DNA of 64,000 nucleotides from IMG/VR virus record IMGVR_UViG_2541047938_000006. One strand, 5' to 3'. Made by a program: the position numbers. The stretch comes from a virus (lineage: Duplodnaviria > Heunggongvirae > Uroviricota > Caudoviricetes). Positions 38,501 through 41,500 of the stretch are shown here, piece after piece (position 1 is the stretch's first letter; each line of letters begins with the position of its first letter).

Positions 38501-41500
38501 AACAAGCCATTACCTGGTGGTGGATGGTTTTCATAGGCAGTTACTAGGTAGAAGAACAGTTACTGGAAAACGCCTGAAAGGCTGGCTACCAGTAACCTGT
38601 ATTAATCCAGACCGAAAGGGACAAACCTCACGTATTGCCGCGACTATCCGACATAACAGAGCCAGGGGGAAACACCAGATAACCTCAATGTCTGATATTG
38701 TCAGAGATCTTTCACGTCTTGGCTGGACTGATGAACGTATCGGAACAGAACTGGGGATGGACCAGGATGAAGTTCTGAGGTTAAAGCAGATTAGCGGGCT
38801 AACGGAGTTATTTCAGCAGGCAGATTTCAGCCCTGCATGGACTGTTACATAAAGTTAGGTTAGGCCTGTGGAGCCGGGGAATCGGAATTAAACATCTTCC
38901 CTCCCCGGTAAATACAAATAAGGGCTGAACATCATCCCGACTACCTCAGATCACCTAATAATATATCAAGATTATTTTGCGCATTAATGCTATTCGCCAT
39001 TACTGTTGCTGCTTCTGGCAACTTTCCAAGAGCAATAAATATATTCTTAAGGCTGATTGGAATTGATGAACCATGCGGATCGCGCCACTCACCGCAAATT
39101 CTGTGAGTTTCATCACAAAGCCTGAACGCATCCCAACCTCCATATTGACCAAAAATTATGTCCATTGACTCTATTTCTGCGGGCGATAACTCCCCCAGCT
39201 CATCAACAGAAGAAAATGTACGCCACATTTCAACCTTATGATCCGCTACATCAGATATCCATGATTCCCACGGACTGTACTCGTTTTCACTTCCATCCTT
39301 AACCAAAGAATATGTCTGCGATAAAACGGGTCCTTTGTTCATAGAGAAATAATGATCACCACTAATGGGAAAACCATACAACTCCATTGCTTTGCGGTCA
39401 GAGAGATACATCAGCTTAATGAAACGCATAGATCCGCCATGTTTTTTCAGCAAATACGCTGCCATTTACGCAACTTTTTCTTCATTAAACATAAATCGGC
39501 TCTCTGTCTCACATGAAATACTCTTTCTGACTATATGTTAATAGCTCCGGTTATTACAGGTTAATGTGTGTTTATTTCTTAATCAGCCCCGCACTTCCGT
39601 ACGGGGCCATTTCTGTTAATCCACTCCCACTTTTTTGTTGTACTCGCGGTTAAAGCGATCCACGGCAACCTTCATATCCCGCTCTACCGATTTCACCATC
39701 GCCGCCTGCTGCGCCAGACTGAGAGAACTGTCGGCATAAATGGCATCGCGCTGTTTGCGCAAATCCTTCAGTCTCTTCCGGGTATCCTGCATAAGCCCGT
39801 TCATCAACAATTTTCCGTTGTTCTCGTCAATGAACGCCGTTCTTTCTGCACCGGTCAGACTCTTCAGCTCTGCGTGATACTGCGCAACCTCTGTCATCCG
39901 GTCGTACATCTTCTGCTGGTCTGCATACGGCATCACCTCACCCGAAATTTTCCCCAGGAAGGGCACCTGCTGCTCCGGTATATCAATACCGTTCAGCGAT
40001 TTCACCGCCGCATCTGTGGTTTTGGAAATGAAGCGCCCTGTCCCTCCGGAGATATAGTCAATCCAGAATTTCAGCGATTCCGGTGTGATATCCACCGCGC
40101 CGGGACGATACTGGCTGCCACCTGAGAACGCATTCAGCCAGGATGCAAACGCCTTGTACGCCTCAGGCGTTGAACGTCTGCCCAGTTGGCTGTCCGGTTT
40201 CGGTGTGCCAAATGGCATGTTCTCCTGGTAAATCTGCGCCCCCATGAAGTTTTCATTCATGGCAAGGTTCGCAAACGGACGCAGAATGGTCGGCGCTGCA
40301 TTTTTCAGCAATGCCCCGGACAGTGTTTCCGACGTTTCACTGCCCACAGGACTGAATGCCCCCAGGATACCACCGACAACATTACCGGCAGCACGTGAAG
40401 CAGTCAGGTCGCCCGCTGCCACACCTTCAGCAGTATGCCCGAGCAGGAAGAAAACGTTGTACCCGTAAGGCAGAGGAATACTCCAGTACTCTCCGGCCTT
40501 GCCCCCGAACACCGATTTCATAATGACGAGGTTACGCTCTTTCACATGAGACGGCACCTTGTCATACCAGTTAACCCCGTCATCATCCTCCCCCGCAACA
40601 CTGCGGTTAAGCGAGCCAAGCAGATAACCCGCTCCCACAGCTGCAAGCGCGATTTTCTGCGGTACATTGAGATTCTTCCAGCGAAGGCGCTCCGGTAACG
40701 GCCCGTCGCCATTAAGATGTCCGAGCGTTCTCACCAGGTTTGCGGTCCCCTGAATGCTGGCGTTGGCAAACATATACAGCGAGTTCATCAGCGCTCCCTG
40801 CTCACCACGACGGTTAAAGTTCACCGTCATGTTTTTGGCAAGAGATGCCGCCTGCTGGCGTGACAAACCGGCATCACGGGCGTGTTTATAGGCAGAAAGA
40901 CGCAGAGCGTTTTCAACCGCGCCGTTGGCATCCTCGACCAGGTTCAGGAACGAATGCCATGCACCGATACTCTGGCCTTTCCATCCTCCCTTCGCCAGCG
41001 ATACAAGGCGATCCATTTCCTTCTGCTGGCCTTCAAGGTCACCCATGTTAAACCAGCCGGTTTTACCTCCATCCTCAACAAACTCTTTCCACACCTTCTG
41101 CCACTGCGCACCGTTGCCCGTGAGGGTTTTACCACGCAGACTGGCGTATACGGCAGACATGGCAGACCGGCTGTCTTTCACCACAGCCAGGGCGGATAAG
41201 TTATCCAGCCCTTTCAGTTTACCGTCGCTCCTTCCCTGCTCAGCCTTCAGGTTCATCACCGCCGTCTGCACGTCACGGATGAAGTTACTGACCAGAAATT
41301 CCGGGTTATACGACGTGTTCACCGTTGCCAGGAAACGGTTAACTTTCCCCAGCGTACGGATTACGGCGTTACTGGTTTCCGGCCCCATGTTCTTCATCGC
41401 ACGCATCAGGCGCGGGTCATGGAGTTTGATGTAGTAAGTTTTGCCGTCCTTTTTGGTGGTGAAGTAGCGATCCGCCATCATTGCCATAGGCACCGGACGT

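Follow-up and report, generated by a model that had tools for sequence, protein, structure and literature searches.

An orphan panA gene in a 933W-like Escherichia coli prophage, probably left over from a PanA-PanT toxin-antitoxin module

The panA locus and its neighbours

The window analysed here is a 64-kb stretch (IMG/VR record IMGVR_UViG_2541047938_000006) of a 933W-like (Sepvirinae) Escherichia coli prophage adjoining ynfF. Its accessory region carries panA, a gene for a Panacea-domain protein of the kind that serves as the antitoxin in PanA-PanT (PanAT) toxin-antitoxin modules. The gene for the toxin, PanT, is missing.

The panA open reading frame (ORF) was confirmed at 38941..39465 on the minus strand and encodes 174 amino acids (aa). 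Its assignment to the Panacea family, made in the initial annotation from the sequence pattern, is borne out by the profile search that had been proposed as a check. The protein matches Pfam SocA_Panacea (PF13274, DUF4065) with E=2.5e-19 and 70.7 bits, above the gathering cut-off of 25.7 and therefore within the family. The match spans residues 16-127, the Panacea core, and profile positions 2-112 of 113. The protein also matches phrog_1281 (E=2e-38), and the identical gene in RefSeq is named 'Panacea domain-containing protein'. The AlphaFold2 model has a mean predicted local distance difference test score (pLDDT) of 86. Scans of the protein with PADLOC and NCBIfam gave no match, and a sigma-70 scan of the 150-bp spacer upstream of panA gave no promoter site at the stringency used.

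The neighbours are those first described. Upstream, on the same strand and across the 150-bp gap, lies a giant gene (39616..47994, minus strand) for a typical 'polyvalent' virion protein of 2,792 aa with the Pfam domains LPD5, LPD1, MuF_C and LPD38. The gap contains a GC hairpin at about 39585..39608 on the minus strand, which is very stable (-22.2 kcal/mol, z=-5.5, 10 pairs in the centroid fold, GGAA loop), is conserved 3' of the giant gene across Sepvirinae, has no U-tract and did not register as an intrinsic terminator. On the other side of panA, 88 bp away and convergent with it, is ibrB (38208..38852, plus strand), which encodes a ParB-like protein. It is preceded by ibrA (36997-38223), whose product resembles phosphoadenosine phosphosulfate (PAPS) reductases and carries DUF3440.

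No toxin-sized ORF lies beside panA, as had been noted. A toxin encoded in the gap (39466-39615) or overlapping panA was considered and rejected: apart from a cut-off panA start of eight codons, the ORFs there are trivial (20-58 aa) and lie antisense or out of frame.

The partner gene and its loss

Full-length relatives of PanA are 185-186 aa long and begin with MFNEEKVAQMAAYLL, a start that is shared by toxin-linked E. coli alleles. A conserved gene of 132-137 aa comes after the Panacea gene, with an overlap or a gap of a few bases, in loci of a Mixta-like enterobacterium, Yersinia, an E. coli P2-like prophage, Pseudomonas aeruginosa and Shewanella. This pairing was surveyed in one genome per species, in 80 loci with PanA relatives at 36-57% identity. 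Among the 78 informative loci, 77 have a match to the partner profile immediately after the Panacea gene and on its strand, and most of these 77 lie outside any giant-gene context. In 68 the match is complete within a single frame. The neighbourhood comparison suggested in the initial annotation thus yields a regular partner.

Two of the pairs stand near phage portal genes. In the E. coli P2-like prophage (L010 5974-6944) the pair lies between the replication gene gpA and the portal gene; in Pseudomonas (L020 2474-3399) it is directly upstream of the portal gene, and the fetched stretch holds no gpA. The gpA-portal interval of P2-like prophages is an anti-phage hotspot (Rousset et al., PMC9122126), which suggests that intact modules of this type travel as defence cargo.

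Searches of Pfam and PDB sequences with the partner protein gave nothing significant. The protein matches phrog_19071, and its family is large. A word-indexed search with the single sequence found 4 proteins, a repeat with their alignment found 208, and an exhaustive profile search found 2,169 representatives of 50%-identity clusters. The AlphaFold model of the partner (pLDDT 93.4) was compared with the PDB using Foldseek, and MazF toxins dominate the matches (probability 1.0, template modelling score 0.5-0.6), which places the family in the EndoA/PemK/MazF fold.

The same family was catalogued as toxin cluster T6 by Kurata et al. 2022 (PMC8832971). Two proteins entered as T6 with the order A|T in its Dataset S1, WP_101821906.1 (Chimaeribacter) and WP_065389115.1 (Photorhabdus), match a profile built on the E. 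coli sequence (E=1e-52 and about 1e-40). The partner is therefore called PanT here; the window itself holds no T6 member. In the entries consulted in the same source, the T6 pair of Pseudomonas moraviensis (PanA WP_083354365.1, PanT WP_083201923.1) is scored as a validated toxin-antitoxin pair. Complex formation is reported for it, and its toxin is grouped with the translation-inhibiting representatives and has HHpred similarity to EndoA/PemK/MazF. Neutralisation of the cognate toxin by complex formation, which has been shown for this homologue only, may by analogy hold for the E. coli pair.

Contigs that carry the E. coli partner (P0113) have the layout of the window with the toxin in place. 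The order is giant gene (2,791 aa), PanA (186 aa), PanT (133 aa), ibrB, ibrA, ant and ynfF, and panT begins 5 nt past the panA stop with GAGG ahead of it. The intact pair was recovered only from draft and metagenome assemblies; at a coverage of at least 80% it was found in none of 5,426 complete E. coli genomes or 50,697 phage records, and window-type orphan panA was found in 18 of the same complete genomes. Annotated antitoxins of 165 aa beside an intact PanT (L015, L018 and L019) were examined as possible damaged alleles and discarded: the DNA has an intact 186-aa ORF, and the start codon had been called differently.

The loss of the toxin can be read from an alignment of the window with one intact contig, L014. 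The two are continuous at 94.7% identity from the giant gene through panA into the first six codons of panT, where the alignment ends at 38918. It resumes inside ibrB at 88% identity. The remnant of panT (38918..38935, minus strand) encodes MMFSPY, the start of a MazF-like toxin of about 133 aa, at the original distance of 5 nt from the panA stop. It is now read as a meaningless ORF of 15 codons ending at 38888. Codons 7-133 are absent, and neither tblastn nor a profile search of all six frames of the 64 kb found PanT elsewhere (best E=3.2), in a search whose positive controls scored 3e-56 (L014) and 4e-8 (the remnant in phage 933W).

Kurata et al. define a module, in the passages cited here, as a conserved two-gene locus with a putative toxin within 100 nt. 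The prophages of the same layout and the 77 paired relatives have such a locus; the window keeps six partner codons. The initial annotation had itself foreseen that homologues might be consistently paired with a toxin lost here by simple truncation, and this is the situation found.

Between the remnant and ibrB lies a 65-bp spacer (38853..38917, no strand assigned). By eye, it is a diverged copy of the sequence after the panT stop in intact loci (L014 5411-5485). It holds an inverted repeat (ccgggga...tccccgg), and the last part of the remnant ORF of 75/02 is read from the same segment. A further stretch of about 280 bp, which in L014 includes a duplicate of the giant-gene 3' end with its hairpin, is absent from the window. 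This duplicate is a 148-bp copy (L014 5542-5689 versus window 39586-39732, minus strand; 96.6% identity) downstream of panT; the window has the upstream copy only. Because the giant-gene 3' end and hairpin recur downstream of panT in intact loci, the panAT cassette is bracketed by direct repeats. These could mark the route by which the cassette was inserted, or its excision by recombination.

Decay of the orphan gene and of related alleles

The 174-aa ORF is itself a shortened gene. The ancestral start codon (ATG, 39490-39492) lies 27 nt upstream of the present one, in a cut-off 5' end at 39466..39492 on the minus strand. With the seven codons after it, it encodes MFNEEKVA; the next codon in frame is TAA (39466-39468), whereas intact alleles read CAA (Gln9) here. 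With TAA at codon 9, translation of panA in the window can start only at the ancestral Met10.

A second lesion lies at 39409..39417 on the minus strand, in the most conserved helix of the Panacea domain. Here the window encodes FIKLMYLS, versus FIKLMKLMYLS in the toxin-linked alleles. Codon 9 is CAA and two KLM units are present in all six toxin-linked alleles; codon 9 is TAA and one unit is present in the window, EC2, PhiR5_2 and UPEC-245U. All window-type alleles examined share the TAA.

The underlying 9-nt unit, AAGCTGATG (compared at window 39409-39417, L003 5930-6130 and L014 4505-4525), occurs once in the window and in 75/02, twice in toxin-linked alleles and three times in the toxin-less fragment of strain cM8a. 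The change in copy number, confined to toxin-less copies, looks like replication slippage.

Other orphan alleles are damaged further. One has an IS3 insertion, others are truncated near residues 100-109, and one has an internal deletion of 26 aa. The two orphan sublineages differ by 4 nonsynonymous and 0-1 synonymous substitutions. The ratio of the two classes is 0.32 against the toxin-linked allele and, on small counts, about neutral inside the orphan clade. The direction of these counts fits relaxed constraint on panA.

Another outcome can be found in phage 933W. After the giant gene L0134, 933W encodes MFNEEKVAQMAAYLLKKHGGSMRFIKL and, directly after it, the final ~25 codons of PanA; codons of about 27-150 are gone, through an internal deletion of ~370 bp. 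This remnant is unannotated and lies just upstream of L0135, a 'hypothetical' gene of 62 aa. In L0135, 10 codons from the start of PanT are fused to its C-terminal part (L002 3755-4100), to which the toxin profile matches as given above. From this fusion and the internal deletion in panA it follows that 933W-type Shiga toxin (Stx) phages carry a doubly deleted PanAT. L0135 and the panA of the window thus share the slot after the giant gene and an origin in the same module. They differ in that both genes are internally deleted in 933W and only the toxin is lost in the window.

In 75/02 and in strain cM8a, about the first 37 codons of PanA are left and run straight into sequence from downstream of panT. 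The giant gene is annotated at full length in both 933W and 75/02, where PanA is destroyed. In every degraded allele of the locus the toxin is destroyed.

A query running from ibrB through PanA to the 3' end of the giant gene matched 186 phage records. In 185 of them the alignment is confined to the end of the giant gene, the spacer and the start of PanA. The homology in these records begins within the first 18-28 Panacea codons and runs into the giant gene, so they lack a full PanA and the slot 3' of the giant gene is a variable one.

Interrupted toxins are seen in other species as well. Of the 77 paired loci, about 7 (L039, L043, L051, L055, L065, L073 and L093; ~3030-3430 in each) have a PanT frame that is broken or shortened beside an apparently full PanA. 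Some of these loci come from metagenome-assembled genomes, in which assembly errors are possible. They hint that toxin-first decay is recurrent in the family.

Over 2.5 kb around panA, strain EC2 and 9 other complete genomes match the window at 100% identity, and 8 further complete genomes and phage PhiR5_2 match it at 98.6-98.7%. Farther out, the ynfF-to-ant interval of the window (35626-36164) is ~527 bp shorter than that of EC2 (9099-10171 of the EC2 stretch L001), and ynfE, which has an integrase-associated truncation in EC2, is intact. The window thus comes from a strain other than EC2 despite the identity around panA.

Interpretation, alternatives and known systems

Since the window holds no toxin, panA is most likely a relic. 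With a probability of about 0.8, it is an orphan antitoxin left after deletion of its toxin, the ordinary decaying remnant of a T6 PanAT module and not a guard against the giant protein. The identity of the domain, the rule of pairing, the ancestral layout with both genes, the loss of panT and the lesions in panA are all shown. Toxicity and neutralisation would follow from the T6 homologue and the predicted fold, and the leftover gene would have no present function.

The course of events may be pictured as follows. The intact module would be a type II system in which panA (186 aa) is followed after 5 nt by panT (133 aa, MazF/Kid fold). By homology with the P. moraviensis pair, PanA would bind PanT directly and block its translation-inhibiting, probably RNA-cleaving activity. 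In the lineage of the window, a deletion of ~400 bp took panT from codon 7 to just beyond its stop. With the toxin gone, panA has begun to decay, through the nonsense change at codon 9 and the loss of one KLM repeat from the core helix. Among sister copies there are IS insertions, frameshifts and internal deletions.

In the passages of Ernits et al. 2023 cited here (PMC10440598), standalone Panacea antitoxins can neutralise directly, the domain is proposed to sense a trigger, and the neutralising element of another PanA is a Phd-C extension. The C-terminal helices of the window protein (residues about 139-171) are conserved within its subfamily, in alignment with the 185-186-aa relatives, and by analogy could serve like that extension.

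Several points weigh against a decaying relic. The orphan ORF is still open over 174 codons and predicted to be well folded, and the 174-aa form is present on 119 contigs and in PhiR5_2, an isolated, propagating phage; given these features, orphan PanA could yet be made and be active. The substitutions are also too few for relaxed selection to be tested with significance. The exact parent allele, with window-type ibrB and an intact panT, was not recovered among the genomes and records searched, and with ibrB just 88% identical to the L014 allele, recombination must have accompanied or followed the deletion. In addition, the toxicity of this 133-aa E. coli PanT is predicted from the T6 homologue and the modelled fold.

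The same open frame, confident fold and wide occurrence speak for a different, unlikely explanation, in which orphan PanA is retained because it acts in trans on T6 MazF-like PanT toxins of other elements and gives an anti-addiction or anti-defence benefit, either to the prophage or to an infecting phage. Related PanAT pairs do sit in P2-like prophages, at the hotspot between gpA and the portal gene (PMC9122126), and the window lineage lost the toxin alone whereas 933W lost both genes. The lesions argue against maintenance, however: toxin-less alleles alone carry the derived nonsense codon and the deletion in the core helix, the orphan allele has been disrupted repeatedly, and the substitution ratio in its clade is about neutral. 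A second T6 toxin was not detected in the window or in 18 complete carrier genomes (by blastn, which misses paralogues below about 65% nucleotide identity). Kurata et al., in the passages cited, also set domain-level partner swapping apart from the cross-neutralisation of homologous non-cognate toxins by one antitoxin.

A somewhat less likely form of this idea is that toxin-less PanA has been domesticated in this Sepvirinae lineage, including PhiR5_2, as an antidote against T6 PanAT abortive-infection or addiction modules of rival prophages such as the P2-like ones. If true, it would be a phage anti-defence protein descended from a toxin-antitoxin system. The initial annotation had offered an orphan or an anti-defence factor; the orphan half stands, on the six panT codons and the pairing of the relatives, and the anti-defence half is unlikely, no second T6 toxin having been detected in the window or, by blastn, in the 18 carrier genomes.

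It is very improbable that PanA forms a three-gene cassette with the convergent ibrAB pair. All full-length panA alleles found, orphan or toxin-linked, do adjoin ibrAB. Yet the PanAT remnants of 933W and 75/02 lack ibrAB, no ibrAB is found near PanA relatives in other genera, and the convergent panA and ibrB are not co-transcribed. Between intact and orphan modules, ibrB is 88% identical and panA 95%, so the two have independent histories. As ibrB stands beside intact as well as degraded modules, it is not the partner of panA. IbrA itself has weak PADLOC matches to BrxP (E=1.6e-7) and DndC (E=4.5e-5), and IbrB has a weak ParB_N match; the pair could be a DNA-modification or defence-type module of the accessory region.

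Polyvalent proteins carry diverse effector domains, and this diversity and same-strand adjacency are all that favours the suggestion in the initial annotation that PanA shields the producing cell from a toxin domain within the giant virion protein. That reading is effectively refuted: Pfam finds only the four domains named above and no recognised toxin domain, tblastn and the PanT profile find no PanT-like segment while the profile controls are positive, a strong hairpin separates the two genes, 185 of 186 matched phage records align over the giant-gene end and lack an intact PanA (the giant gene being annotated at full length in 933W and 75/02), and the PanA subfamily is paired with T6 PanT mostly where no giant gene is present.

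If panA is a decaying antitoxin, a partnerless Panacea gene requires no exotic explanation, and the result is mainly a point of annotation and interpretation. It accounts for L0135, a long-standing hypothetical gene of 933W, and it identifies as wreckage of PanA and MazF-like PanT the short ORFs labelled 'Panacea' or 'hypothetical' that follow the giant gene of Stx phages. The locus also provides a natural series, from intact pair to toxin-deleted module to deletion of both genes, in which the decay of toxin-antitoxin cargo in prophages could be followed. For the question of whether T6 PanAT is a prophage-borne anti-phage defence, the rare intact pair from E. coli offers a ready candidate.

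The module belongs to the already catalogued PanAT family. It resembles the T6 modules in the cited passages of Kurata et al. in having a standalone Panacea antitoxin of ~185 aa first, a toxin of ~133 aa at -4 to about +15 nt, and, for the toxin, a MazF/PemK-like fold with no Pfam or CDD match. The window differs in that the toxin is deleted and the antitoxin has a nonsense codon 9 and a 3-aa deletion. The passages cited from PMC8832971 and PMC10440598 do not mention PanAT downstream of the giant polyvalent gene in Sepvirinae prophages, a placement for which no dedicated literature search was made.

Among other type II systems, MazEF and Kis-Kid (PemIK) share the fold of the toxin. The antitoxin here has a Panacea domain, unlike their MazE/AbrB-fold antitoxins, and the sequence identity of PanT to MazF is 5-16%; ribonuclease activity of PanT is predicted from the fold. 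SocAB of Caulobacter crescentus is different again: SocB is an unrelated, replication-blocking toxin, and SocA is a ClpXP adaptor and not a stoichiometric inhibitor. The likeness lies in the antitoxin, which belongs to the same domain family, Pfam SocA_Panacea being named after SocA; the pair appears as T10 in the cited entries of Kurata et al.
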